Part shown: in pieces, positions 7,018-64,000 of the stretch
Layout of the letters: each line of letters begins with the position of its first letter
How positions within the stretch are numbered: the first letter of the stretch is position 1
Virus record (IMG/VR): IMGVR_UViG_3300008954_000022
Location: 31,673 to 95,672 of that record
DNA from: a virus
Length of the DNA stretch: 64,000 bases
Strand: one strand, 5' to 3'
Program-made: the position numbers and the translations under genes
The notes under the pieces: model-generated
The model's database searches: none
What the model saw: the letters and a program-made list of their open reading frames with translations, nothing else
What the model was told of the DNA's origin: nothing

Positions 7018-10000
7018 GTGACATTTAGGTGTGCCCATTTAAGCGATGTGCACTGGCGGGGACTCACGAGACATGATGAGTATCGTGAAGCTTTCAGCCA
7101 GATGTTCGAGACATTCAGGGATCTGAATCTAGACGCCATTTTTGTGGGAGGGGACATTGTTCACTCCAAGACACAAGGTATATCACCGGAGCTGATAGAC
7201 TGTCTCTCATGGTGGTTTTCAGAGATGGCGGATATTGCCCCGACTCATATCATCTTGGGAAATCATGATGGTCTGATAATGAATAAGCACCGTCAGGATG
7301 CGATAACCCCCATTGTCAATGCCCTGGGTCATTCCAATCTCCACCTCTACAAGAGTTCCGGAACTTATCCTATCGGGGTGCCAGGCTATAACTGGTGTGT
7401 CTTCTCGTGCTTTGATGAGGAGTCCTGGCCAGATGTGAAACCGGTGCAGGGTGAGATTAATATAGCAACCTTCCATGGGGGTGTTCAGGGATCGACAACC
7501 GACATCAACTGGGATATTGAGGGTGACGTCGACCTGGATTTCTTTGATGACTTTGATTTTACCTTCCTGGGTGATATTCACAAGTTGCAGTATCTGGATG
7601 ATGAGAAAAGAGTAGCTTATCCCGGGTCGACAATACAACAGAATTACGGTGAGGATCCCGGGAAGGGTTTCCTCTTCTGGGAGATAGAGGATAGGGATAC
7701 GTTCACCAGCACTTTCTACGAGATTCCCCACTCTTGTCCATTTGTTACAATCGACTGGGCTGGGAATGTCAAGGACACAGTCTCTTTAGCCGCAGCCCAT
7801 CCCAATCTATCGAGGTTTAGGGTACGCACTGACAGCCCAATCTCCCAGGCTGAGATAAAGCACCTCCACAGTGCACTCAAGAATCAGAAACGCGCCACAG
7901 AAATAGTCTTTAAGCATGATCACACGATCGATGTGTCAACGATTCAGACCAGCGCAGGGGATTTTTTCACAGAGGACCTCCGTGATGTCAACACCCATGT
8001 GCGTCTAATGAGGGAGTACTACTCAGAGATAGATATTTCTGATGAGCAGTGGGAAAGGTTGGAGGGGCTCATAGCCAAGTACGTGACACCTGCTTCTAAG
8101 ACAGATGTTGTACGAAATATCAAGTGGTCAGTGCAGCGGCTGGAGTTCGATAACACCTTCTCGTACGGTAAGGGAAACATCATTAACTTTGACGCCCTGG
8201 GTGGGATTCTCGGTCTCTTCGGCAAGAACCGTGCTGGGAAATCATCGATCCCAGGCACTATGATGTATTCACTTTTTAATACTACAGATCGCGGCCCTAT
8301 CAAGAACCTTCACATCATCAACATGCGAAAGGGGTACTGTCTAGGAAAAGTGTACCTGTCAGCGAATGGAAAGAGATACCTCGTTGAGAGACAGTCTGTT
8401 CGAAAGACCTCTCGGAGGGGAGTCGAGAATGCGGTAACACACCTCAATTTGAGCGAGATTGATGAGGTAGGAAATCAGATAATTGATATGAATGGCTCCC
8501 AGAGACGGGAGACTGAGAAGTCTCTTAGACAAATTGTGGGAACTGCTGACGACTTCCTAATGACATCCCTGGCCAGCCAGGGCCAGATGAATAACTTCAT
8601 CAGACATAAGGCAACCCAGCGCAAGGCCATTCTCACCAAGTTTCTTGACCTCAACATATTCGATGACATTCTAAACCTCGCCAAGGAGGATTCCTCCGAA
8701 TTAAAAAGCATCCTGGGAAATGCCTCGGACAGGGACTGGGACACTCTAATATCTGAAAAGAACACTCTCAAGAGAAAGAAGTCGAAGGAACGACGAGAGA
8801 TAGAGGCAAGCATAGCCAGGCATCGAAAGCAGCTTCAGGAGATAACAGTTGCGATTGCCACACACTCGAATAAGGATCTGGTCACTGAGAGCGATGTGAG
8901 TCAGAAGGAAGCAGGCATCGCAGATTCCAGGCTGCAGTTAACCGGGATGACAGAACAGTCTCAAGCATCTCTGGAAAAGATAAGGGAGATAGAGGCAACT
9001 CTAAAATCGATTGATTCAGTGAAGGATCAGTTCCCAATCGAGGATCTCCGACAACGTCGGGATGCCCAACAAGACCTTGAGCGAGCGCTGGTTGAACTGG
9101 GCCACACTCACGAGAGGGAAAAGACGCTTCTCAAGAGCCAGAAGAAGTCCATTAAGCTTCTAGAGGAGGTTCCGTGTGGGGATACATTCCCCACTTGCAA
9201 GTTCATCAAGACATCCCACGAGAATAAGAAGAAACTGGATGATCAGGAACGCCTGGTTACAGAGTCATTGGACAGGGTGAAGGCATCGAAAAAGTCACTG
9301 AAGGTTCTTACGAGGGAGAATCTCTCTGAGAAGATTGAGAAGTATGACAAGATCCTGACTCGCGAGAATAATCTCAAGATAAAGCTCTCTAATCAGAAAC
9401 TCGACTTGACGAGGGTGAACAATCGAAAGAAAGTGCTTCAGGATCTGATCGATAATGCAGACAGAGAGCTCCAGGGAATGCGCCTTCGGGTCTCTACTTC
9501 CACTGAGGCCCAAAAGGTAAGTGCTGCTCGTCAGGAAATGAATACGATCAATGACAAGATCAACAACTTCGACGCTCAGCGTATTAAGCTTACCGAGTCT
9601 ATCGGTCACCTCGATGCTGAGATAACTCTCCACAAGAAGGATAAAGAGAAGTACGGCGACCTAATTGAGCAGTGGAAGATGTATGAACTCCTCCTGGGCG
9701 CTGTCTCCAAGAAGGGTATTCCTCTCCAGATAATGGCATCCCAGCTACCTGCGATCAACAAGGAGATCTCACAGATTCTCCAAGGAGTTGTTGGTTTCAC
9801 TGTGGAACTCGAGGCAGATGCTGGAACGAATGACATGGATATCTACATCAACTACGGCGACTCGCGCAGGATTATTGAGTGTGCTAGTGGCATGGAGAAG
9901 ATGATGGCATCCCTCGCAATTCGGGTAGCCCTTATCAATGTCAGCTCTCTTCCCAAGACAGATCTTCTCATTATTGATGAGGGGTTCGGCGCGCTGGATG

Positions 10001-14530: not shown

Positions 14531-15371
14531 GACGCACAACAAAAAGAGAAATGTTGGCATCATATACGAGCAGTTGGTGCGACGTGTCTCCGAAGCGTTG
14601 GTTGAAGGAGACACCCAGACAGCTGACAAGGTGGTGGGAATTCTACGCCGACATTTCGATCGAGACAGTCAACTCTATCGTGAGTTTAGACTGTTCAACG
14701 CGCTAGTAAAGACCACTGTTCCATCTGAGTCACTGGCAACACGAATTCTCACTGAGGCGAAGGAGGCTGCTCAAGATCACAACGCAACGAAGCTTCGTCA
14801 GGAGAAGGCGGCTCTCATTCGGGATATTAATCACACACTGAATGATAGGAACTTCTACAAGACACGTGTTGAGGGGTACCGAACGTACGCAACAATCCAG
14901 ACACTTCTCAATGATTGGCGGGCTGGTAGTCGACTGGGTCGAGTGATTGATTATGAGCAAAAGATTCATGAGTGGCTACTATCAGATGCCCCCACAAGAT
15001 CAATTAATGAGCTTAAGACACCAGGGGTTAACCCCCTTACTGTGAAGATAATGACAGACAAGTTTAATCAAAAGTATGGAAGGTCATTGACCAGTGCTCA
15101 GAAGGAGATCGTCCAGGAGTATGCGTTTTCGAAGTCGCCCAAGAGGGACGATATCGTGAGGGGTATGCTAGCTCGTCAAAAGGATGAGCTTCTCAGGGGA
15201 CTCACCAGCTACGCGCGCGAGTGTAGTAATAAGATACTCCTTGAGAAGATTCCCGAGGTAAGGGAGAAGATAGACTCCCTGGATCTGAGCGAGATGTCTG
15301 ATATGGGCATCTCTCGATTTCTGGTCCTGTCCCAACTGGGGCACGAGATAATGGAGGGCGAAGATGAGTAA
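14523..15371 (+). CDS. Hypothetical head-morphogenesis protein (between portal and protease)
   Basis: 282 aa, predicted helical, AAGGAG SD sequence, overlaps both neighbouring genes. Confidence 0.55.
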   Translation: MSKTHNKKRNVGIIYEQLVRRVSEALVEGDTQTADKVVGILRRHFDRDSQLYREFRLFNALVKTTVPSESLATRILTEAKEAAQDHNATKLRQEKAALIRDINHTLNDRNFYKTRVEGYRTYATIQTLLNDWRAGSRLGRVIDYEQKIHEWLLSDAPTRSINELKTPGVNPLTVKIMTDKFNQKYGRSLTSAQKEIVQEYAFSKSPKRDDIVRGMLARQKDELLRGLTSYARECSNKILLEKIPEVREKIDSLDLSEMSDMGISRFLVLSQLGHEIMEGEDE

Positions 15372-15978
15372 TACGAAACTGAAACTGCTCACTGAGTGGG
15401 TACCGTTTGAGTACACCCAGGAGATGATAACAGAATCGAGGGATTCCAACGGTGGAAAGATTATCCTCAAGGGTGTGCTACAGAAGGCAGGAACTCTCAA
15501 TCAGAACGGCAGGGTTTATCCTTTGCCCATCCTAGAGCGTGAGGTTAGGAACTATCAGAAGTTCATCCAGGAAAATCGGGCCCTGGGAGAGTGCGATCAT
15601 CCAGAGTCAAGCGTTGTGGAGCTCAAGAACGCGTCCCACATCGTGCGTGAGGCCCACATGGAGGGAGATGTGGTGTTCGGAGCCGTTGAGCTCCTAGACA
15701 CCCCAAGCGGAAAAATTCTACAGAGCCTGGTGGAGTCAGGCATTACACTGGGTATCTCAAGTCGCGGCGTAGGTTCGACAAAGGCTGAGGGAGACCACGA
15801 TGTTGTTCAGGACGATTTTCAGCTAATATGCTGGGACTTTGTATCCGAGCCCTCCACGCCAGGCGCATTTATGATGAGAGAAGGACGTATCGTTAACGAG
15901 CACGATCTCAAGACTCACTTTACCAAGTCTGATAGAATTGATAGAATATTCAACGATATACTTCAGTGGGAGGAGTAG
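15364..15978 (+). CDS. Prohead core protease (T4 gp21-like)
   Basis: NQNGRVYP, ALGECDHP, ASH, LLDTPSG, LGISSRGVGS and DFVSEPSTPGA. Confidence 0.92.
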   Translation: MSNTKLKLLTEWVPFEYTQEMITESRDSNGGKIILKGVLQKAGTLNQNGRVYPLPILEREVRNYQKFIQENRALGECDHPESSVVELKNASHIVREAHMEGDVVFGAVELLDTPSGKILQSLVESGITLGISSRGVGSTKAEGDHDVVQDDFQLICWDFVSEPSTPGAFMMREGRIVNEHDLKTHFTKSDRIDRIFNDILQWEE

Positions 15979-21053: not shown

Positions 21054-22943
21054 ATGTCCAAGAATTTTACACTTGATCAACTAACAGAGGGCATCCGGCA
21101 GCGGCACCTCGGTTCTCAGAACCGTCGTCTCGTTGAGAAGTGGGCCCGCACCGGCCTCCTCCGTGGCCTTGAGGGTGTTCATCGAGAGAACATGTCCAGA
21201 ATGCTTGAAAACCAGGCTGGCCAGCTACTCCGTGAGCGTTCCACCCTGTCCACAGGAGCCAGCGCCCTAACCAACGCAAATGACATTGCGGGATTCACCA
21301 ACGTGGCATTCCCAATCGTCCGCCGCGTGTTCGGCGGCCTGGTAGCCAATGAGCTGGTTTCTATCCAGCCCATGAGCCTACCTTCCGGCCTGCTGTTCTA
21401 CCTCGACTACCAGTATGGCTCTGATGGCGGCGCTGATGCCTCCTCAACAGAGGCAGTCTACAGTCAGGGAGACTCCATCTATAACAGCCCAACCGGCAAG
21501 GGCGTACGCTCCGGTTCACTAGGAACCGGCGGCCAGTACGACCTCGCAGGCAGTGGCTTCTCGCGCGTACACAGCAATACAGACCTGGATGCTGATATTT
21601 TCCTCGCTTCCGGTTCGTATGTGGGTGCTGCTTCAGCCGGCGGAAACTGGTCTGATGGTGGCAAGCTTCACGCGACGGGATCTGATGGCAAGCTTCTCCA
21701 GTTCGATCCACAGATCGCTGCGCTGATTGAGGATGACCCCAATCGAGCGAACACTGGACAGTTCCAGGCAGTTGTCCTCAATCTGGGTAACGCCTGCTTC
21801 TCCAATGCGGACCTCACCCTGGTGAAGGACATTGCGCTTCACTTCGGTGCTGCATCACCCAGCTCTGCATCCGGTCTTCCCAAGACGGTTCAGGGCGGTG
21901 TCGGTATCGTCAATGTGCGACGCCTCAACCAGATTGGAACGTGGACGAACAACGTGTTCACTGCTGATCCTCTCGTTAATCGGGCATCCACCGGTGCAGC
22001 TCTGATGGCTGTTATCTCCGGATCGATGCTTGATGATGCAGATCGTCAGAAGCTTGAGGTCTCCGTCGTTCTGGATTCCGCATTGAACGCCTCGAACGGT
22101 GAGACCCTTGTGGTTCCCGCCTTTGAGTCGGACTTCGGTGCAACACCAACTCCGGCAATCCCAGAGATCGATATCAAGATCGAGTCGATCGCTGTGACAG
22201 CGGTAACCAGAAAGCTGCGTGCCAAGTGGTCACCAGAACTCGCTCAGGACCTGAACGCCTACCACAGCCTCGACGCTGAGGTGGAGCTAACCCAGATCCT
22301 CTCCGAGCAGATCGCCCTAGAGTTGGACCGAGAGATTCTCAACGACCTGCTCACCCAGGCGAATGGTGCAAACCTCTACTGGAGTCGTGCACCTGGTAAG
22401 TTCGTCAACAAGGAGTCTGGCGCTGAGATCAATCAGAGCTCCAGTCTCGCTCCTGGACCCTCCTTCACGGGAACCGTCCGCGAGTGGTATGAGACTCTCA
22501 TTGAGACCGTCATTGACGTGGCAAACACCATTCATCGCAAGACGCTGCGTGGTTCTGCTAACTTCGTCGTGGTCGGTCCCGATGTGGCGACTATCCTTGA
22601 GGCATCGGTCTTCTATCGTCCGTCCTACACCCTAGACGGTGAGGGACAGGTCAGTGGTCCGATCTCCCTGGGAGCCGAGAAGGTCGGTACCCTGAGCAAT
22701 CGTTTCACGGTCTACAAGGACCCCTACTTCCCACGCAACAAGATTCTTGTTGGTTACAAGGGTGGTAGCTACCTTGAGACGGGATACGTCTACGCTCCGT
22801 ACGTGCCGCTTATCGTCACCCCGACGATCTTCGCACCCGAGGACTTCACTCCTCGCAAGGGCGTGATGACCCGTTACGGCAAGAAGATGGTTCGTTCCGA
22901 TTTCTACGGAACAGTGACACTCATGGATATGAACGTCATCTAG
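21054..22943 (+). CDS. Major capsid protein (T4 gp23-like)
   Basis: KWARTGLLRGL, FPIVRRVF..LVANELVSIQPM..PSGLLFYL, TRKLRAKWSPELAQDLNAYH.LDAEVEL, GYKG, YAPYVPL and FTPRKGVMTRY. Confidence 0.95.
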   Translation: MSKNFTLDQLTEGIRQRHLGSQNRRLVEKWARTGLLRGLEGVHRENMSRMLENQAGQLLRERSTLSTGASALTNANDIAGFTNVAFPIVRRVFGGLVANELVSIQPMSLPSGLLFYLDYQYGSDGGADASSTEAVYSQGDSIYNSPTGKGVRSGSLGTGGQYDLAGSGFSRVHSNTDLDADIFLASGSYVGAASAGGNWSDGGKLHATGSDGKLLQFDPQIAALIEDDPNRANTGQFQAVVLNLGNACFSNADLTLVKDIALHFGAASPSSASGLPKTVQGGVGIVNVRRLNQIGTWTNNVFTADPLVNRASTGAALMAVISGSMLDDADRQKLEVSVVLDSALNASNGETLVVPAFESDFGATPTPAIPEIDIKIESIAVTAVTRKLRAKWSPELAQDLNAYHSLDAEVELTQILSEQIALELDREILNDLLTQANGANLYWSRAPGKFVNKESGAEINQSSSLAPGPSFTGTVREWYETLIETVIDVANTIHRKTLRGSANFVVVGPDVATILEASVFYRPSYTLDGEGQVSGPISLGAEKVGTLSNRFTVYKDPYFPRNKILVGYKGGSYLETGYVYAPYVPLIVTPTIFAPEDFTPRKGVMTRYGKKMVRSDFYGTVTLMDMNVI

Positions 22944-30812: not shown

Positions 30813-33800
30813 ATGGCTGAACTGACCTTTAAGAGCGCCGGCGTAAGCACGAGGGAAATAGACCTCAGTGGACCCACGGCGATAAGTCCTCAGGGTGTAC
30901 CTGCAGGTGTCATCGGAACTTCGCAGAAGGGACGGGCATTTGTCCCAATCACTGTTGCGACGTACCAAGACTTTGTAGCCGAATTCGGCGCAACCGATGG
31001 AGAAAAGTTCGGCCCGCTTGCCATGAATGAGTGGATGAGAAATGCCCGAGCAGGAACCTATGTGAAGGTTCTGGGTGTGGGAAATGGCACCCAGCGACAG
31101 TCTGGCGGTGACAACTCGGGACGCGTAGTTAATGCGGGATTCATTGTGGGTAACCGACAAGTTCAGGATAACGGACTCGTTGGTAACAACGCATATGCAG
31201 GCGCTAACTCTGCTACAAATGGCATCGAGGGAAGAACATACTTCTTGGCAGCACTCTGCTCACAGAACAATGGAACAATGCTAGCTGACGCAGGGATTCA
31301 GACAGATGTAGCACATCCTATTTTGAGAGGTGTGCTTATGGCACCCTCTGGTGTGCTCTTGGCCCTATCCTCATCCTACGCGGCCGCCGCAAATCAGAAC
31401 GACCCAGCAGCTAATCAGTCTGCCATGGGTGTCTTTGGATCTGCTGCCATTAACGACGGTGGCTCGTGCCACGGAACTGTTGATGTCTCTAACGGACAGC
31501 AGAACTTTGTGCTGATCCTCAACGGGCACAAGAAGCAGGACACGTATCCTAACGTGATCACAGCTTCTTTCGACCCAGCGGCTCCACAATATATCTCAAA
31601 GGTTCTGAACACAGATCCCACCAAGATCGAACAGGCTGGGCACCTCCTCTACTCGAGCTTTGACGTCTACCCATCACACCTAACTCTGACTGGAAGTGGA
31701 GTCAACGCGGGCACAGATGTTATTGATGAGTGTGCGCTCCTATTGACAGGAACACTAGGGAGAAATGTGGGATCGGCAACGTCTCCCAACTATGAAAACT
31801 GGGAGGACAGGTTCCAGACAGCGCGCTCCCCGTGGATAATCTCTCAGAAGTTTGGCGCTAGTAATAAGAACCTCTTCCGAGTTCACGCTCTTGATGACGG
31901 AGATCGTCCAAACAGTCTCATTAAGATAACCATTGAGAACATCCAGGCAAGCAATAATGAGAACACCACTTACGGTAAATTCGATCTTCTAGTACGAGAT
32001 TACACAGACACAGATGTGAACTCTGTTGTGCTAGAGAGTTTCCGAGGCCTCTCATTGGATCCCTCCTCTGAGCGCTATGTCTCGCGCGTTGTGGGTGACA
32101 CGAAAATGTACTACGACTTCGACCAGAAGTCTGGTGCTCAGAAGCTGAGAATTGAGGGATCACACCCGAATGCCTCTGCCTATATTCGCATCGAGGTTCA
32201 TTCTGATGTCGAGAACCTCGTGGTGGATGCAACCGCTCTGCCGTGTGGATTCCGCGGTCCCCGTCACCTGGTGACTAGTGGTTCCGAGGGCGCCAGCACC
32301 GGTGGCCACCTTGAGGGCTTTGTTGCTTCCGCAGCCGCTGCGACTCAAACAGGATTTACGCCTGATGTCATGTATCGAGTGGTTCAGCCTCCCCTTCCCA
32401 TGCGTGAGCACCTCACGATCGGCGACGCTCCTAAGAAGAGGGTAAAGGCCCACTTTACCTGGGGTATCCAGTGGGAGGTCAAGGACGACCAGGCACGACC
32501 CAATGCGAGATCGAAGATCGACTCATCGCTAGTGAATCACTTCAAGTACTATCCCGGATTTGCTGACACCTGGAGAAAGGTCCTGGTGGGAGATAATGAG
32601 GGAACTGTGGACTCTGGTGGTACCGTTCTCGATGCTGACCGATTCAACAACAATTTCTTCTCCCTTGAGCGTATTCAGGTGTCGACAGGATCGAACGATC
32701 GGCCCATCAATTCGAGGTGGGGTGCCGCAGTCTATCGGAGAACCGGAGTGAAGGCAGCAACCCTGACAGACTCTGATGGAACAGTCTATCAGCGTGATGT
32801 CACGCGATTCCTTGACCCCTCTAAGGACTTCAATCACCTTCCCTCTCGGAAGTACCTGAAGTTCACGCTCCCTGTGCAGGGAGGCTTCAATGGAGTCAAT
32901 CCCTTCGACGTGGCGAAATCCAAGATGACAGACACAGCTTGTCGTCGAGAGTTTGGTGATGCTGCTAATCAGGGTGGTGTTAAGGGACCAACAATTGCCG
33001 CCTACAGAAAGGCAATTGATGTAATGGAAGAGAAGGCAGATGTTGATATTCAGCTGCTCTCCATTCCTGGAATTCGACATGAGTCAGTTACAGACTATGC
33101 CATCGACGCTGTGGAGGGTAGATTTGATGCGCTCCTGCTGATGGACATTGAGGAGAAGGACACAGTTAATGAGTTCGTGACCTCCTCTGCTGATCAGATC
33201 ACTGACGTGAGTAACACTGTTGAGAGATTCGAGGCACGTAACCTCGATTCATCCTTCGCGGCTGCATACTTCCCAGACGTAGTGATCACAGATCCGGCAA
33301 CGAGAACCAACGTTCAATGTCCACCCTCGGTCGCTGTCCTCGGGGCCTTCGCCCTGAATGATGCAGTGGCCCACCCGTGGTTCGCTCCCGCAGGTTTCAC
33401 CCGTGGTGCTCTTACCTCTGTTGTGGAGTCACAGGTGAAGCTTAATCGATCCAACCTAGATGCTCTGTACGAGGGCGATGTGAATCCTATCACATCCTTC
33501 CCACATACACCAGGTGTTGTGGTCTTCGGTCAGAAGACGCTTCAAGCAGCTCAGTCCGCTCTGGACAGAGTCAATGTGCGACGTCTCCTAATTGAGATTC
33601 GACGCAGGGTCCGACGCATTGCTAACACCCTACTTTTCGAGCCAAATCGTGAGGAGACTCTGGCGAGGTTCGCTAACGCGGTGAATCCCGTTCTGCAGAG
33701 AATCCAGGCCCAGCAGGGACTTGATCGATTCAAGGTGCAGATCGACACAACAACGACAACGCAGTCTGATGTTGAGAACAACACAATTCGCGGAAAGATC

Positions 33801-51146: not shown

Positions 51147-51166
51147 GGGAGATATTTAGAACTATC

Positions 51167-52430: not shown

Positions 52431-52844
52431 GTGAGCCTTCTTCGTAAGTACATTCGACAAATTATTCTCGAGCATGAGGGGTCGCTCGACGGAAGATGGA
52501 CTTCTACCGGTGTCCCAAATTCCGCTGGTGGGACGAGGACCGTTAGTGATACAAACAGCGACAACATGTCATGGTCATCCGAGGACGACACCGACGACGG
52601 CCCACCCGATGATCTTCTGATAGAGCCTGACTTTGTCGAGGATCCGGATGAGGAGGGTAAGGACATCCGCAAGGAGATCTCAGCCATCAGCGGAGGGGGC
52701 GGAGCAATGACTTCCACCAACGCGATTGGCGGCGCCACAACTCCTCTGGGAACTGGTCCCACCTACCCATCGAAGAAGAAAAAGAAGAAGCGCAAGAAGA
52801 AGGGGAAGTACCCCACGTACGGTACCCTCTCTAGCGACGATTAA
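52431..52844 (+). CDS. Hypothetical low-complexity protein carrying the N-terminal basic tag
   Basis: ATACTTA at 52400-52406; MSLLRKYIRQIILE; acidic middle region and poly-Lys tail. Confidence 0.55.
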   Translation: MSLLRKYIRQIILEHEGSLDGRWTSTGVPNSAGGTRTVSDTNSDNMSWSSEDDTDDGPPDDLLIEPDFVEDPDEEGKDIRKEISAISGGGGAMTSTNAIGGATTPLGTGPTYPSKKKKKKRKKKGKYPTYGTLSSDD

Positions 52845-57328: not shown

Positions 57329-59839
57329 ATGACTCAGATCACGTACGATGCTGCTTATGCTGCCTGTCTGGAATATTTTGACGGAGACAACCTAGCTGCA
57401 AATGTCTTCTTGACCAAGTACGCCCTGACTGACAGGGAGGGGAACCTTCAGGAGAGCACCCCGGATGACATGCATCACCGCATGGCCAGGGAGTTCGCAA
57501 GGATTGAGAGAAAGTATCCGAATCCGATGTCTGAGGAGGAGATCTACCAACTCTTCAGAAAGTTCAAGTATGTGATACCCCAGGGCTCACCCATGTCAGG
57601 TATCGGGAATGATTATCAGGTACAGTCAATTTCTAACTGCTTTGTTATTGAGTCCCCTCATGACTCCTACGGAGGTATCTGCAAGACAGATCAGGAGCTT
57701 GTCCAGATTGCTAAGCGCCGCGGCGGGGTGGGATTTGATATTTCCACGATTCGACCCAAGGGCCAGGCGACCGGTAACTGTGCCAGAACGACTGACGGGA
57801 TTGAAGTCTTCATGGACAGATTCTCTAACTCCTGTCGGGAGGTAGCCCAGGGCGGCCGCAGAGGTGCTCTGATGATAACACTCTCTGTGCATCACCCACA
57901 GATAAGGGATTTTATCCGTATCAAGCGGGACCTCCGACGAGTGACAGGAGCGAACATCTCCGTCAGACTTACGGATGAGTTCTTGCAGGCTGTCTCTGAC
58001 GATGCCAATGTGGAGTTGAGATTTCCTATTGATGCTGCCTCTCCGGAGATTTCTAATCAGGTTAAAGCAAAGGAGCTCTGGGACGAGATTATTGAGAGCG
58101 CGCACGAGTGTGCAGAGCCAGGTCTTCTAATGTGGGACAATGCAAAGAGGCTCACTCCGTCGGATGTGTATGATGATGTGGGCTTCGGATCGACATCGAC
58201 GAACCCATGTGCGGAGATCGTGCTGTCCCCGTATGACAGCTGTCGTCTAATGATTGTCAATCTACTGAGCTTCGTTGAAGAGCCCTTTGCTGACTCCGCA
58301 AGGTTCAACTATGAGAGGTTCGATGAGGTGGTTCAGCAGGCACAGCGTCTAATGGATGACATGATCGACCTCGAGATTGAGCAGATTGAGAAGATTCTGG
58401 ACAAGATTCATAATGATCCGGAACCGGAGGCTGTGAAGGCCATTGAGCGAGAGCTCTGGCAGAACATAAGAACCCAAGCCGAGAGGGGACGACGCACCGG
58501 CCTGGGAGTTACCGCCGTCGGTGATGCTCTGGCAGCATTGAATATTCGGTACGGAAGTCGTGAGTCAATTGATACAGTCGAGAGGTTCTACCGAGCTTTG
58601 GCAACTGGAGCGTATCGCTCATCTTGTATAATGGCCCGAGACAGGGGCGCATTTCCTATTCACAGTCATCAGAAGGAGCAGGGACACGAGTTCCTGGAGC
58701 GAATCTGGGATACGGATGATGAGATTAGGCGCATGTCAGAGAAGTATGGCAGGAGAAATATTGCGCTGACGACTACTGCACCAGCAGGCTCTGTCTCTGT
58801 TCTAACACAGACGACCTCTGGTATTGAGCCGGCCTACCTTCTCAAGTACACCAGGCGAAAGAAGATCAACCAGGAAGCTGACCCACATGCTCAGGTGGAT
58901 TTTGTAGATGATGTGGGTGACTCGTGGCAGGAGTACGAAGTATATCACCATGGCTACAAGAAGTGGCTTGACAAATACAGCAATACAGTTGCCAAGGGTA
59001 TCGAAGCATCAGGGACTTCAGTGGATGAAGAGGGACTCATAGCAATGAGTCCATACTGGAAGTCGACCTCAGGAGACATTGATTGGATTGCGAAGGTCCG
59101 AATGCAGGCCGCAGCACAGAGGTGGATCTGTCACGCGATATCGAACACAACAAACGTACCTAAAGACACAGATAAGGCTACAGTCGCTGAGATTTACATG
59201 GAGGGCTGGCGCGCCGGATGCAAGGGTGTCACTGTCTACCGAGACGGCTCGAGGTCTGGTGTGCTAGTTGAGTCACGTGAAAACGAGGGGATCAGGTATC
59301 ACAGCTCTCCCAAGCGACCCTTGACGCTCCCCTGTGATATCCACCACGCCACTATCAAGGGTGAGAAGTGGACCATCCTTGTGGGTCTGCTCGACGGTCA
59401 ACCCTATGAGATTATAGGCGGATTGGCAGAGTTTGTTGAGATTCCAAAGAAGTATAACGTAGGCACAATTGCAAAGAGGCCTCGCAAGACGAGAAACTCC
59501 ATTTACGACCTCAGCTTTGGAGAGAACGGCAACGAGGTGACAATTAAGGATGTTGTGCGTGTCTTCGATAATCCCAACCACGCGGGATTCACGAGAATAA
59601 TGTCCCTAGCACTCAGGCACGGAGCTCCTCGTCAGTACATTGTCGAACAGCTCCAGAAGGACAAGGATGCTGACCTCTTCTCGTTTGCCAGAGTTACAGC
59701 GAGGGTCCTCAAGAAGTATATCAAGGATGGGACAGTCCCAGGAAAGACAACGTGTGAGAATTGTAGCTCTGAGGACACCCTAATCTATCAGGAGGGCTGT
59801 GTTACCTGCACGGCCTGTGGATTCGGAAAGTGCGGATGA
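57329..59839 (+). CDS. nrdJ: Class II (adenosylcobalamin-dependent) ribonucleotide reductase
   Basis: SNCFV, GGVG, QGGRRGA, TNPCAEI, RRTGLG, APAGSVS..TQTTSGIEP, ISNTTN and KGVTVYRDGSR. C-terminal TSCPD-like domain and CxxC...EGC..C..CG..KC tail; no adjacent beta subunit. Confidence 0.88.
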   Translation: MTQITYDAAYAACLEYFDGDNLAANVFLTKYALTDREGNLQESTPDDMHHRMAREFARIERKYPNPMSEEEIYQLFRKFKYVIPQGSPMSGIGNDYQVQSISNCFVIESPHDSYGGICKTDQELVQIAKRRGGVGFDISTIRPKGQATGNCARTTDGIEVFMDRFSNSCREVAQGGRRGALMITLSVHHPQIRDFIRIKRDLRRVTGANISVRLTDEFLQAVSDDANVELRFPIDAASPEISNQVKAKELWDEIIESAHECAEPGLLMWDNAKRLTPSDVYDDVGFGSTSTNPCAEIVLSPYDSCRLMIVNLLSFVEEPFADSARFNYERFDEVVQQAQRLMDDMIDLEIEQIEKILDKIHNDPEPEAVKAIERELWQNIRTQAERGRRTGLGVTAVGDALAALNIRYGSRESIDTVERFYRALATGAYRSSCIMARDRGAFPIHSHQKEQGHEFLERIWDTDDEIRRMSEKYGRRNIALTTTAPAGSVSVLTQTTSGIEPAYLLKYTRRKKINQEADPHAQVDFVDDVGDSWQEYEVYHHGYKKWLDKYSNTVAKGIEASGTSVDEEGLIAMSPYWKSTSGDIDWIAKVRMQAAAQRWICHAISNTTNVPKDTDKATVAEIYMEGWRAGCKGVTVYRDGSRSGVLVESRENEGIRYHSSPKRPLTLPCDIHHATIKGEKWTILVGLLDGQPYEIIGGLAEFVEIPKKYNVGTIAKRPRKTRNSIYDLSFGENGNEVTIKDVVRVFDNPNHAGFTRIMSLALRHGAPRQYIVEQLQKDKDADLFSFARVTARVLKKYIKDGTVPGKTTCENCSSEDTLIYQEGCVTCTACGFGKCG

Positions 59840-59843
59840 GATC

Positions 59844-60446
59844 ATGAAGTGGACAACAGAGATATCGCCACTCCTCAAGGAGTACGAGCTGAGGAAGAAC
59901 ATTGTGATTCCCCGGGTCAACAAGTTCGATGAGAACAGCGCGAAAAAATTTGTGGACGAGATGGCCAAGGCTCACAACTCCGGGCAGCCCGTCATTCCCG
60001 TGATAATTGACTCCTATGGAGGACAGGTCTATTCCCTGATGACGATGATAGCTGCGATTCAGGATGCTGAGATTCCTGTTGCAACAATTGTTGAGGGCAA
60101 GGCAATGTCCTGTGGAGCGATTCTCTTCTCCTTTGGAAGGGAGGATTATCGATTCATGGATCCAAACGCCACAGTGATGATTCACGATGTCTCCTCTATG
60201 GAGTACGGAAAGGTCGAGGAGATCAAGGCCTCGGCCGACGAGACAGAGAGACTGAATCAGATTGTGTATCGGATGATGGGTCGAAATTGTGGAAAGAAGG
60301 CAGATTACTTCTTAAAACTAGTTCACAAGCGCGGACACGCGGACTGGTTCCTAGATGCTGAAGAGGCGAAAAAGCACAATCTAGCCAACCACATCAGACT
60401 TCCCAAGCTGCATATTACGGTCAGTGTTGACATCGATTTTGAGTAG
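59844..60446 (+). CDS. ClpP-like serine protease
   Basis: IIDSYGGQV, GKAMSCG (Ser), VMIHD (His) and DWFL.AEEA (Asp). Confidence 0.82.
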   Translation: MKWTTEISPLLKEYELRKNIVIPRVNKFDENSAKKFVDEMAKAHNSGQPVIPVIIDSYGGQVYSLMTMIAAIQDAEIPVATIVEGKAMSCGAILFSFGREDYRFMDPNATVMIHDVSSMEYGKVEEIKASADETERLNQIVYRMMGRNCGKKADYFLKLVHKRGHADWFLDAEEAKKHNLANHIRLPKLHITVSVDIDFE

Positions 60447-61441: not shown

Positions 61442-61524
61442 ACAACTGTGGCAGTGGGTAATACCTTTCAGTCGTTCGTGTAATATTTAGTCTTACATAC
61501 AACGCTGTGTTCGGGGTAAGAGTA

Positions 61525-63201
61525 TTGTCCAAGAGAATCAACGAGCTTTCTTTAGGTGAACCGACAAAGAGTGTTGAGTACACTGGATTCGTACTTGACG
61601 CTGCTTCTCACCAGAAATTAGCTGCCCTCGCCCCGGAAGGCTGGAAGGTGTTCGCGCACCACATGACAGTCATTAATCCCCCAAACATGAAGAGGAGACT
61701 TCCAGCTCGATGGCTGGGAGCAGAGTTCTGTGTAAGGGTGGTTGGGGTTGCCCAGGACAGTATGGTTATGACAGCTCTTGTGGACTTGGGAGGCACACCT
61801 ATTCCAATGAAGGGCCCTGAGTATCCTCATGTGACCATCGCCACAAATCCCTCAGCCGGCGGAAAACCGGCAATGTCTAACTGGAAGTTCAAGCCGAAAA
61901 TTGACGAGTTTAATTTTCAGGAGATCACGCCCATCACGATCTGTGGAACGATTGAGGAAGTCATGCGAGAGGGAAGAAGATCGACCACACTCCGGAGACT
62001 TATTCGGGAGACCCTTCTTCGTGAAGCCCCGTCTGAAGAGCCAGTCAGGATGCCCTTGAACCTTCCAGTTCCAGCAGACATTCGTGACCTGACCAAGGAG
62101 TTTCGCGCTGCAGGGCACGAGCTCTATATTGTCGGCGGCGCAGTTCGAGATGCCCTGCTGAATAAGACACCTAAGGATTACGATCTTGCGACTAGCGCAC
62201 CGCCTGATAGAGTGATAGAAATACTCTCAGGATCGCCAGAGTTCCAGACCAAGCCCGTTGGTGAGGCGTTCGGTGTGGTGTTGGTGAAAACTCCGGATGG
62301 CAGTGAGTACGAGGTGGCAACCTTTCGAAAGGATATTGGTAAGGGTCGTCGCCCGGACTCGGTGGAGTTCACTGATATCAAGTCTGATGTTCAGCGACGC
62401 GACCTCACCATCAATGCTCTTTTCTACGACTTGGACACAGGAGAGGTGGTTGACTATGTGGGAGGTATTGAGGATCTAACCAATGGAGTAGTCCGGACTG
62501 TCGGACAACCTGAGGACAGGTTCGGTGAGGATAAGCTTCGAGTGCTTCGTGCGATTCGGTTCGCGGCGAGGTTAGGCTCGGATCTAGATCCTGACACCGC
62601 GCGCGCGATAAAGGAGGATCCCATTCTGGAGCAGGTCTCCTCCGAGAGAATACGGGATGAGTTCCTTAAGGGTATAGAGTCAGCACAGCGGGTACCTCAC
62701 TTTCTGGAGATGTTTGAGGAACTAGACCTCTTCGAGGAGGTCTTTCCTGGGCTCGAGGTTAACGCAGAGTATCACCAAGAGCGAGATCCAATAATCCAAT
62801 TGGCTCTTCTTCTTCGGGACAACGTGCCAACTGCAGTGTCACAGACACTTAAGAGTTTGAAGTATACAAACGAGGAAGTCAAGAAGATTGCCTTTCTCTT
62901 GGCATTCCAGGAGCTCCAGGAAACATCTGCACCCCAGCTTAAGAAGAGGTACAACGCATCAGGATTGAGTCCCGATCAGTTGAGTGTTTTTGCCGAGGCT
63001 GTGCAGGTGCCATCCGAAAGGCACGTTAGTGCTTTCCTTGAGTTCGCCGGGGCCCCACCATCTGCTGACCCCCGAGAGTTGATGTCACAGGGGTTGACAG
63101 GACCTGATATCGGAAAGGCGATGGAGGACGCGGAGTACGATGCTTATCGACAATTGGTGGGAGAGTCAGTACTACGAGCCTATATCAGGCTTTTCGCGTA
63201 G
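61525..63201 (+). CDS. Fusion of 2H phosphoesterase (cyclic phosphodiesterase-like) and class II CCA-adding tRNA nucleotidyltransferase
   Basis: N-terminal HHMTV and PHVTIA..GGKPAMSN give the two HxT motifs. Then VGGAVRD..DYD, RRDLTINA, EDKLRVLRAIRF and SERIRDE. Start is TTG 61525 or GTG 61507. Confidence 0.85.
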   Translation: MSKRINELSLGEPTKSVEYTGFVLDAASHQKLAALAPEGWKVFAHHMTVINPPNMKRRLPARWLGAEFCVRVVGVAQDSMVMTALVDLGGTPIPMKGPEYPHVTIATNPSAGGKPAMSNWKFKPKIDEFNFQEITPITICGTIEEVMREGRRSTTLRRLIRETLLREAPSEEPVRMPLNLPVPADIRDLTKEFRAAGHELYIVGGAVRDALLNKTPKDYDLATSAPPDRVIEILSGSPEFQTKPVGEAFGVVLVKTPDGSEYEVATFRKDIGKGRRPDSVEFTDIKSDVQRRDLTINALFYDLDTGEVVDYVGGIEDLTNGVVRTVGQPEDRFGEDKLRVLRAIRFAARLGSDLDPDTARAIKEDPILEQVSSERIRDEFLKGIESAQRVPHFLEMFEELDLFEEVFPGLEVNAEYHQERDPIIQLALLLRDNVPTAVSQTLKSLKYTNEEVKKIAFLLAFQELQETSAPQLKKRYNASGLSPDQLSVFAEAVQVPSERHVSAFLEFAGAPPSADPRELMSQGLTGPDIGKAMEDAEYDAYRQLVGESVLRAYIRLFA

Positions 63202-63240: not shown

Positions 63241-64000
63241 ATGAAACTTTCAATGAGGCAGCTGAGAAGATTGATTCTCACCGAGTCCAGAAGGACTCCA
63301 AGTCTAGTCGAACTATTGTTCGAAGAGGAGGAACTCAATTCGACCGAGCCTTCTGATTCTGGCGATGCCGGTGCAGATCTTGAGGCAGCATTCAAGGCAG
63401 GTCCCGAAGGGGTCCGGGCTTTTATGGATACCAACAAAGATGAGTCTGTAGTAGACATCTTAGCAAAAGCTGCTGAAGAATATGATGGATCCGCTGAGGA
63501 TGATGTGATTACTGTCGGTGGTGCAACGCCCACAGCTGTTAAGGATCTCGGACCTACACAACAATTCATTGATTTAATGCAGTCAGTTTCCTTTCCTCTT
63601 GGGAGTGCCAAGGTTTTGGACGGTGCAATCTCTAGCAAGACTACTGGGGCCCCAGGAGCAATTTCAGTTTCGGGTGGTGCAGTGTTAGATGGCCATCACA
63701 GGTGGTCAGGAGTTTTTGCCATCACCCCAGACGGCGCGATCAGTTCGAAGGATTTTGGGTTTCCCGGGGGTGTCACAGAGAAGCTAGCTGCGGCACAGAT
63801 GGCAGTTGCTGCTGTGAAAAAAGGAAAGGGTCAGCCCTCAAAGGGTGGCGGCGCTGCAACCGATATTATAGGTAAAGGAGCACCCGAGATTGTTGCTATG
63901 ATTGACGCAAACAAGGGTGAGCAGACAGATCCGGATGCTCCTGGACCCCTTCTCAACGACGAGATGATTCAGTCGATTGCTAATGGAGATTATCCTGGCA
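63241..64000 (+). CDS. ParB/sulfiredoxin-fold protein carrying the N-terminal basic tag, 3'-truncated (absent from the ORF track)
   Basis: Translated by hand: MKLSMRQLRRLILTE...VKDLGPTQQFID...ISVSGGAVLDGHHRWSG..., open to the window end. GGAG SD; ATAGTTA at 63209-63215. Confidence 0.7.
   Translation, partial: MKLSMRQLRRLILTESRRTPSLVELLFEEEELNSTEPSDSGDAGADLEAAFKAGPEGVRAFMDTNKDESVVDILAKAAEEYDGSAEDDVITVGGATPTAVKDLGPTQQFIDLMQSVSFPLGSAKVLDGAISSKTTGAPGAISVSGGAVLDGHHRWSGVFAITPDGAISSKDFGFPGGVTEKLAAAQMAVAAVKKGKGQPSKGGGAATDIIGKGAPEIVAMIDANKGEQTDPDAPGPLLNDEMIQSIANGDYPG

Follow-up and report, generated by a model that had tools for sequence, protein, structure and literature searches.

We examined a 64,000-nucleotide stretch of viral DNA (positions 31,673 to 95,672 of IMG/VR record IMGVR_UViG_3300008954_000022, hereafter the window) and found that one of its genes encodes two RNA-end enzymes in a single chain: a 2H phosphoesterase and a class II tRNA nucleotidyltransferase, each preceded by a short leader. 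A role in healing RNA or tRNA ends is well supported, and the protein is probably part of an end-healing toolkit that recurs among phages and microbes. In the mechanism that we propose, the 2H domain would act on an RNA whose 3' end carries a 2',3'-cyclic phosphate and open this ring, a separate phosphatase would remove the resulting 2'-phosphate, and the transferase would rebuild or complete the 3' terminal CCA. The substrate would be a tRNA, the leaders would be propeptides of a T4-type prohead protease, and expression would be late. An earlier sequence-only reading of the window had described a 2H phosphoesterase fused through a cargo tag to a CCA-adding enzyme, as a possible injected kit for tRNA repair. 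Its enzyme identities, its replacement of an HD domain by a 2H domain and its linker tag all withstood comparison with relatives, whereas its treatment of the fusion as the unit gave way to a unit made of a tagged module.

Motifs and a predicted fold place the N-terminal domain among the 2H phosphoesterases, in the CNPase/Trl1-CPD clade. Searching 1.84 billion representatives returned 270 relatives of the domain. In a 79-sequence family alignment, the columns of the two HxT motifs named by the sequence-only reading were the only invariant ones (H52, T54 and H108), with T110 kept in at least 90% of sequences. The Pfam family tRNA_lig_CPD matched residues 35-125 at 14.2 bits (E 0.031), under its gathering cut-off of 23, and relatives passed that cut-off (P0010 at 25.3 bits, P0080 at 27.4 and an open reading frame, ORF, of L010 at 25.9). 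The same family was present in 24 of 47 multidomain relatives. The 2H part of a full-length AlphaFold model was poor (predicted local distance difference test, pLDDT, < 50, with the domain misaligned in the underlying alignment), and we used a dedicated model of the domain with a pLDDT of 86.9. This model matched the CNPase catalytic domain with a Z score of 13.2 (root-mean-square deviation, rmsd, of 2.3-2.5 Å over 132-133 residues) and the CPD domain of fungal Trl1 (6u05) with a Z score of 10.9. Scores were lower for Acb1 (Z 7.4, rmsd 3.7 Å, 113 residues), LigT (6.5) and plant CPDase (within 6.5-7.4). Fold comparison, which the earlier reading had named as a check, thereby returned a 2H fold for the N-terminal half. 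Comparing the family profile with PDB sequences gave noise only; the fold comparison gave the matches instead.

The second domain has every motif that had been named for a class II nucleotidyltransferase: GGxVRD (210-215), DxD (224-226), RRD (297-299), EDxxR (341-345) and ERxxxE (380). It matched Pfam PolyA_pol on residues 206-330 (E 1.7e-34), PolyA_pol_RNAbd, the neck, on 360-417, and PHROG 2244 (E 2e-61). The full-length model had a pLDDT > 90 from residue 181 to the end and aligned with the whole Bacillus CCA enzyme (1miv) over 340 residues at a Z score of 26.8, with a span of 1-380 in that comparison. Both domains are under purifying selection when judged against L003, the closest relative, an IMG/VR sequence whose ORF is collinear and 91% identical. 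The ratio of nonsynonymous to synonymous divergence (dN/dS) was 0.067 overall, 0.077 in the 2H domain and 0.049 in the transferase. Coordinates of these and other features are collected in Table 1.

Table 1. Features of the fusion gene and of associated genes, in window coordinates (aa, amino acids of the fusion protein).
Feature	Position	Strand	Basis
Fusion ORF (564 aa), in order leader 1, 2H phosphoesterase, leader 2 and class II tRNA nucleotidyltransferase	61507..63201	+	Open frame and domain searches
Leader 1, aa 1-13, degenerate tag ending I-N-E	61507..61545	+	Alignment with relatives, helix prediction
2H phosphoesterase domain, aa about 20-155, CNPase/Trl1-CPD clade	61564..61971	+	Motifs, family alignment, fold model
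First HxT motif, H52-M-T54	61660..61668	+	Family alignment and motif scan
Second HxT motif, H108-V-T110	61828..61836	+	Family alignment and motif scan
Leader 2 (linker tag), aa 160-173, (L/I)xE at 166-168 and 171-173	61984..62025	+	Alignment with relatives
Class II tRNA nucleotidyltransferase, aa 186-550: head, neck, body, tail	62062..63156	+	Pfam, PHROG, PDB sequence, fold, motifs
Flexible loop and basic/acidic motif region, aa 274-289	62326..62373	+	Alignment to 6ibp and 1miv
C-terminal tag-like end of last helix, aa 553-564, without final Glu	63163..63198	+	Conservation across transferase modules
ATATTTAG promoter-like motif before the ORF	61483..61490	+	Over-representation in window
T4-type prohead protease, candidate processing enzyme	15364..15978	+	Pfam Peptidase_S77, E 1.1e-23; 31% identity to T4 gp21
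Next gene, N-terminal tag of same type, cut by window end	63241..64000	+	ORF list; tag by comparison

The pairing of these enzymes recurs among relatives. We fetched 159 relatives of the 2H domain to count architectures and scanned the 47 multidomain ones with Pfam. A class II transferase accompanied the 2H domain in 21 of the 159, which is what the architecture search proposed by the earlier reading yielded. The transferase came first in most of these proteins; the 2H domain led only in the fusion protein, its close relative P0002 and P0080. Distant proteins of this kind had no tag at the junction, so they are ordinary multidomain enzymes. Among the 47 scanned proteins, Pfam families included PolyA_pol (18), NT5C-type HAD (5), HAD_SAK_1 (3), ART-PolyVal (2), Phage_Mu_F (1) and Acb1 (2), the last lying, in the inspected P0119, on a second and different 2H domain. 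P0080 has the architecture 2H-transferase-HAD_SAK_1, and P0075 combines ART-PolyVal, a transferase and a 2H domain. Close homologues of the transferase were joined to HD/HD_4, NUDIX, HAD_SAK_1, DUF192 or 2H. These alternate fusions support a pattern, drawn from sequence comparison, in which phosphoesterases would be interchangeable partners of a CCA-type transferase, and the idea that 2H here takes the place of HD fits it.

Neighbouring genes in relatives extend the same theme. On viral contigs, a P-loop kinase (AAA_33) is also found fused to a 2H domain in proteins of about 310 amino acids. Their genes are 2-5 kb away from tRNA arrays of 10-13 genes, and most of these tRNA genes do not encode the CCA. 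Such a fusion mimics the healing half of fungal tRNA ligase. In five IMG/VR sequences (L010, L016, L017, L022 and L025) the kinase fusions carry a short basic N-terminal leader ending L-R-E. A 254-kb relative encodes a tagged transferase, a tagged 2H enzyme, a tagged HAD-like gene and a 707-amino-acid HAD_SAK_1 protein within 10 kb, with three tRNA genes 6 kb downstream of this cluster. The IMG/VR sequence L004 carries HAD phosphatase candidates at 8414 and 9112, the second being a HAD_SAK_1 protein.

Two known systems resemble the fusion in design. The E. coli-type multifunctional CCA enzyme likewise joins a class II transferase to an end-clearing enzyme in one chain, with the same motifs and the same head, neck, body and tail. 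Its end-clearing part is a C-terminal HD domain with reported cyclic phosphodiesterase, nucleotidase and phosphatase activities, whereas the phage protein has a non-homologous 2H domain at its N-terminus. A Pfam scan of the fusion found no HD domain, in line with the absence noted earlier. Trl1-CPD belongs to the same clade as the phage 2H domain, given the tRNA_lig_CPD matches of the relatives and the fold match to 6u05, although the phage domain is much smaller (about 135 versus about 190 residues of aligned range). Together, relatives of the fusion combine 2H with a P-loop kinase, a class II transferase and HAD_SAK_1, as in Trl1 and the Swiss-army-knife (HAD_SAK_1) proteins; unlike these, the fusion chain itself has no ligase, kinase or HAD domain. 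The Swiss-army-knife RNA repair proteins were reportedly defined in a 2016 survey by Burroughs and Aravind.

Several observations weigh against an end-healing role for this chain. When CNPase and Trl1-CPD enzymes open a cyclic phosphate, they leave a 2'-phosphate next to a free 3'-OH, and an end of this kind is perhaps not one that the transferase can extend. By this established enzymology a phosphatase is still needed, unless the transferase tolerates a 2'-phosphate. In relatives, a HAD phosphatase is found in the same chain or in a neighbouring gene. No phosphatase, kinase or ligase was found in the 95.7-kb source contig, which CheckV estimates to be 28% complete, and NT5C, AAA_33 and HAD_SAK_1 had no match there. 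The contig search with HAD_SAK_1 matched in no control genome either. HAD_SAK_1 was also absent from the protein itself. No tRNA gene was found in the contig. Given the partial contig and the HAD_SAK_1 search without a control match, these contig negatives are not evidence of absence. The nearest relatives do not always fuse the two modules, which makes fusion alone weak evidence of coupling. CdiA toxins cleave acceptor ends and leave a cyclic phosphate, with cuts at positions 70-73 (PMC9071432). These cuts lie upstream of what a CCA enzyme can rebuild, and thus CdiA does not explain the natural lesion.

If the two enzymes are not coupled, the transferase could complete CCA on phage tRNAs while the 2H domain destroys cyclic-nucleotide or 2'-5' signals, as Acb1 does, or acts as an RNase, the two sharing a chain only through the shuffling of tagged cassettes. 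The closest relatives carry the modules with other partners or as separate genes, phage tRNA arrays mostly lack encoded CCA, and recombination appears to have occurred at the tags, as described below. Iyer et al. 2017 proposed RNase or signalling-nucleotide-degrading roles for phage 2H domains in polyvalent proteins (PMC5512222), a further point against healing. Acb1, a 2H enzyme from phages, also has two HxT motifs and is about as small. However, the CPD/CNPase clade is a better match than Acb1 or LigT both in fold and in Pfam, many distant proteins join these two domains without tags, and the kinase fusions beside tRNA arrays reproduce an arrangement known for tRNA healing. We therefore consider an incidental fusion unlikely. 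A second question is whether the transferase adds only A, only CC or a poly(A)-type tail rather than a full CCA. The structure of E. coli poly(A) polymerase scores level with CCA enzymes (Z 26.1 versus 26.8), so that fold comparison cannot tell the two kinds apart, and fold and sequence alone do not separate CCA addition from A addition or other tailing. The transferase scored under every NCBIfam equivalog cut-off, which also counts against an end-healing role: 205 bits for NF009814 (cut-off 290), 184.5 for pcnB (cut-off 305.65), the second-best match, and 97 for the multifunctional CCA enzyme model (cut-off 451). The flexible loop is two residues shorter than in the Bacillus (1miv) and Planococcus (6ibp) enzymes, close to the shortening that the earlier reading had estimated. 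Under the criteria of Hoffmeier et al., CC-adding enzymes have this loop deleted (PMC2910056), whereas here it is kept. Regular-expression scans of the protein found neither the poly(A)-polymerase signature, whose absence had been noted before, nor the downstream motif of A-adding enzymes. The best sequence and family matches are CCA enzymes, and an enzyme short of full CCA addition seems quite improbable. CCA addition is our best guess from sequence and model.

The leaders also recur in relatives. In 13 relatives the 2H domain is preceded by a tag, internal or N-terminal, to which leader 1 aligns. Leader 1 has a predicted helix at residues 3-14 and an (L/I)xE site at 11-13. Leader 2, with a predicted helix at 159-173, can be aligned residue by residue to the leader at the N-terminus of P0007, P0017 and P0029, proteins that begin with a transferase module. 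Against L003 the linker region had a dN/dS of 0.18, and its core is conserved. The linker is therefore a recurring tag, as had been proposed. The C-terminal tag-like helix is kept on transferase modules with or without a following domain, and it closes the last helix of the transferase with high model confidence (pLDDT 88-97). Statistical recovery of the leaders was weaker. A hidden Markov model (HMM) built only from leaders of relatives scored the window leader at 52437 at 10.2 bits, versus a shuffled maximum of 7.2, and recovered neither the linker nor the other window tags above the shuffled background. Two regular expressions, written after seeing the tags, gave 2 and 3 matches versus 0.04 and 0.22 expected. 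Since these statistics are weak, we base the linker tag on how its position aligns in relatives.

The arrangement of tagged modules in relatives argues that the unit is a leader with its enzyme module rather than the 2H-transferase fusion itself. The modules occur in reverse order (leader-transferase-leader-2H in P0007 and P0017), as separate genes, or with other partners of no known family. Accordingly, their joining in this particular protein may be incidental. In the IMG/VR sequences L004 (116-9115) and L007 (2273-9222) we found arrays of at least eight consecutive genes, each opening with the same leader of about 14 residues. L004 has one leader type throughout, and L007 has another, of an 'E-N-W' type. 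The proteins behind these leaders are unrelated, including a GNAT-like protein, HAD-like phosphatases, a 2H enzyme and a transferase placed behind a domain of no known family.

The leaders look like recombination junctions for the exchange of cassettes. Nucleotide homology to L003 runs at 85.5% over 9.6 kb and ends at 63165 (L003 9659), exactly where the C-terminal tag-like helix begins. After the break, L003 encodes a tagged NUDIX hydrolase and the window a different tagged ORF. Synonymous divergence from L003 also differs threefold between the halves of the fusion gene, at 0.28 in the 2H half versus 0.88 in the transferase half. The end of homology at a tag, the differing genes beyond it and the gap in synonymous divergence together suggest recombination at the leaders.

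What the leaders do in the phage is a separate matter from end healing, and one answer would add to that role rather than compete with it. The protein could be a polyprotein of capsid cargo, with leaders that act as T4-style propeptides, are cut by the S77 protease behind their Glu residues and allow both enzymes to be ejected with the DNA. We regard this as possible but short of probable. The protease that the sequence-only reading placed at 15364 is of the T4 prohead type, and the contig also encodes a T4-type portal (Portal_T4) and a gp23-type capsid protein (Gp23) beside this Peptidase_S77 gene. S77 proteases were likewise found in two complete relatives and in one that is 75% complete. 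The leaders end in (L/I)xE, as do the propeptides of T4 IPII/IPIII, gp24 and gp22, and resemble the processing sites of the T4 cargo enzyme Alt, which is cut at both ends at I-T-E and L-T-E (PMC5694885). In T4, a targeting sequence of 10 residues suffices for foreign proteins to be packaged, and gp21 then cleaves this sequence off (PMC10229621, PMC9026906). In the capsid protein of the contig, L-R-E lies within a few residues of the cut site of T4 gp23, which follows L-T-E. Small tagged ORFs (16425 and 16979) lie between the protease and capsid genes, the arrays described above place one leader on unrelated enzymes, and the promoter-like motif of the fusion gene also precedes the tail-tube gene. 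On the other side, a tblastn search with the 2H domain found no counterpart among GenBank phages, and no cultured relative is available. Aeromonas phage Ah1 is cultured and has a cca gene, but this gene lacks a leader and is thus unsuitable as a proxy in proteomics. The window leaders have diverged beyond what the HMM recovers except at 52437, and the regular expressions were chosen with the data in view. Tag-like helices also occur at C-termini, here without the Glu, which is unlike the pattern of T4 targeting sequences, and the fusion gene lies among replication and nucleotide-metabolism genes, outside the head module. The leaders might instead be docking or oligomerisation helices of a cytoplasmic multi-enzyme complex, or mere junctions that favour recombination. 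This would suit their presence at N-termini, at C-termini and between domains, the continuity of the C-terminal one with a confident helix of the transferase, and the breaks in synteny at tags. It does not account for leaders that end in Glu with L or I two positions before, as at prohead protease sites, nor for the same motif at the maturation site of the capsid protein, and we know of no precedent for such docking helices in phages. We consider docking helices or bare junctions unlikely. Packaging and injection thus appear plausible, if tentative. The full scenario, in which a leader-punctuated polyprotein would be loaded into the prohead core, cut by the T4-type protease, ejected with the DNA and able to heal tRNA 3' ends that host defences against translation have damaged, before phage translation, is one that we hold only tentatively.

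The source contig represents part of the genome of an uncultured marine phage, a T4-like giant whose full genome would be roughly 340 kb and probably exceeds 300 kb. Public runs containing the stretch carry the labels marine or seawater metagenome, and no RNA dataset was among the runs listed. The fusion ORF is intact from GTG 61507 to a stop ending at 63201. The earlier reading began the gene at 61525, an in-frame TTG that is codon 7 of this ORF. We prefer 61507 because the leader is complete, and aligns with those before 2H domains in relatives, only when translation begins there, and because L003 begins at the same GTG.

Upstream of the gene, the motif ATATTTAG that the earlier reading had called late is present and over-represented. 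There are six copies in the window (10417, 19212, 24246, 33892, 51152 and 61483), all on the + strand, versus 0.81 expected, and none of 100 shuffles reached six. Every copy lies 8-35 nucleotides from a downstream start codon, and the 7-mer of the motif is enriched 12-fold upstream of ORFs. Copies precede the tail-tube gene (33931) and the large ORF 19233, the latter just upstream of the capsid gene. These positions make it a candidate late promoter element, from which we infer that the fusion gene may be expressed late; the motif itself held up, and its promoter function stays at the level of a candidate. From the position of the copy at 51152, the start of the tagged ORF at that place would be ATG 51167 rather than 51143.

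Other genes of the contig touch on processing. The N-terminal region of the capsid protein (21054-21240) has several (L/I)xE sites, of which L-R-E predicts a propeptide of about 61 residues. Two genes upstream of the fusion, 59799-60446 encodes a ClpP-family protease (Pfam CLP_protease, E 6.7e-24), which may be a second candidate processor of tagged proteins or have an unrelated role. The gene after the fusion (63241-64000) matched no Pfam family; by eye it has a D-G-H-H-R-like motif that recalls ParB/sulfiredoxin-fold domains.

When placed beside known cargo systems, the fusion differs in where its leaders sit. In T4, unrelated proteins (IPI-III and Alt) begin with a short amphipathic leader that ends (L/I)xE, which the diverged leaders here resemble, but in the window a leader stands between two enzymes of a single chain, and modules can end in tag-like helices as well. 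RNA-repair enzymes would be the cargo here, a kind of protein not known from virions. Polyvalent proteins, described from phages and conjugative elements, carry several unrelated effector domains per phage polypeptide, 2H among those listed, and are believed to enter the host together with the DNA (Iyer et al. 2017, PMC5512222). By comparison, the fusion has two domains only, with no MuF, portal or metallopeptidase module in the chain, and its borders are marked by leaders that would fit the prohead protease rather than an in-chain peptidase. A survey of jumbo phages lists CCA enzymes and 2H enzymes separately as RNA-repair components (PMC7824862). Our literature search, which did not cover the 2016 Swiss-army-knife survey, found no description of a 2H-transferase fusion or of leader-tagged RNA-repair enzymes. 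In sequence and in fold, the fusion shows what defines both superfamilies, 2H and class II transferase, yet it falls under curated family cut-offs. Its end-healing architecture is a recurrent one, and the new part is plausibly the leader-delimited and possibly virion-delivered form.

These results define a large clade of small Trl1/CNPase-type 2H enzymes in uncultured phages and link it to tRNA arrays, kinases, HAD phosphatases and CCA-type transferases. They also show a CCA-type transferase combined with interchangeable phosphoesterases. To our knowledge, virion cargo includes anti-restriction proteins, RNA polymerases and an ADP-ribosyltransferase, and no RNA-repair enzyme. If the packaging reading is true, this would be the first virion-delivered tRNA repair, and modular cassettes of leader and enzyme would let T4-like giant phages reshuffle their injected cargo by recombination at the leaders. 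The leaders would also give a concrete and testable code for cleavage and packaging in marine T4-like giant phages. Host defences that cut or block tRNAs stop the synthesis of phage countermeasures, and a repair enzyme injected ready-made would escape that trap.

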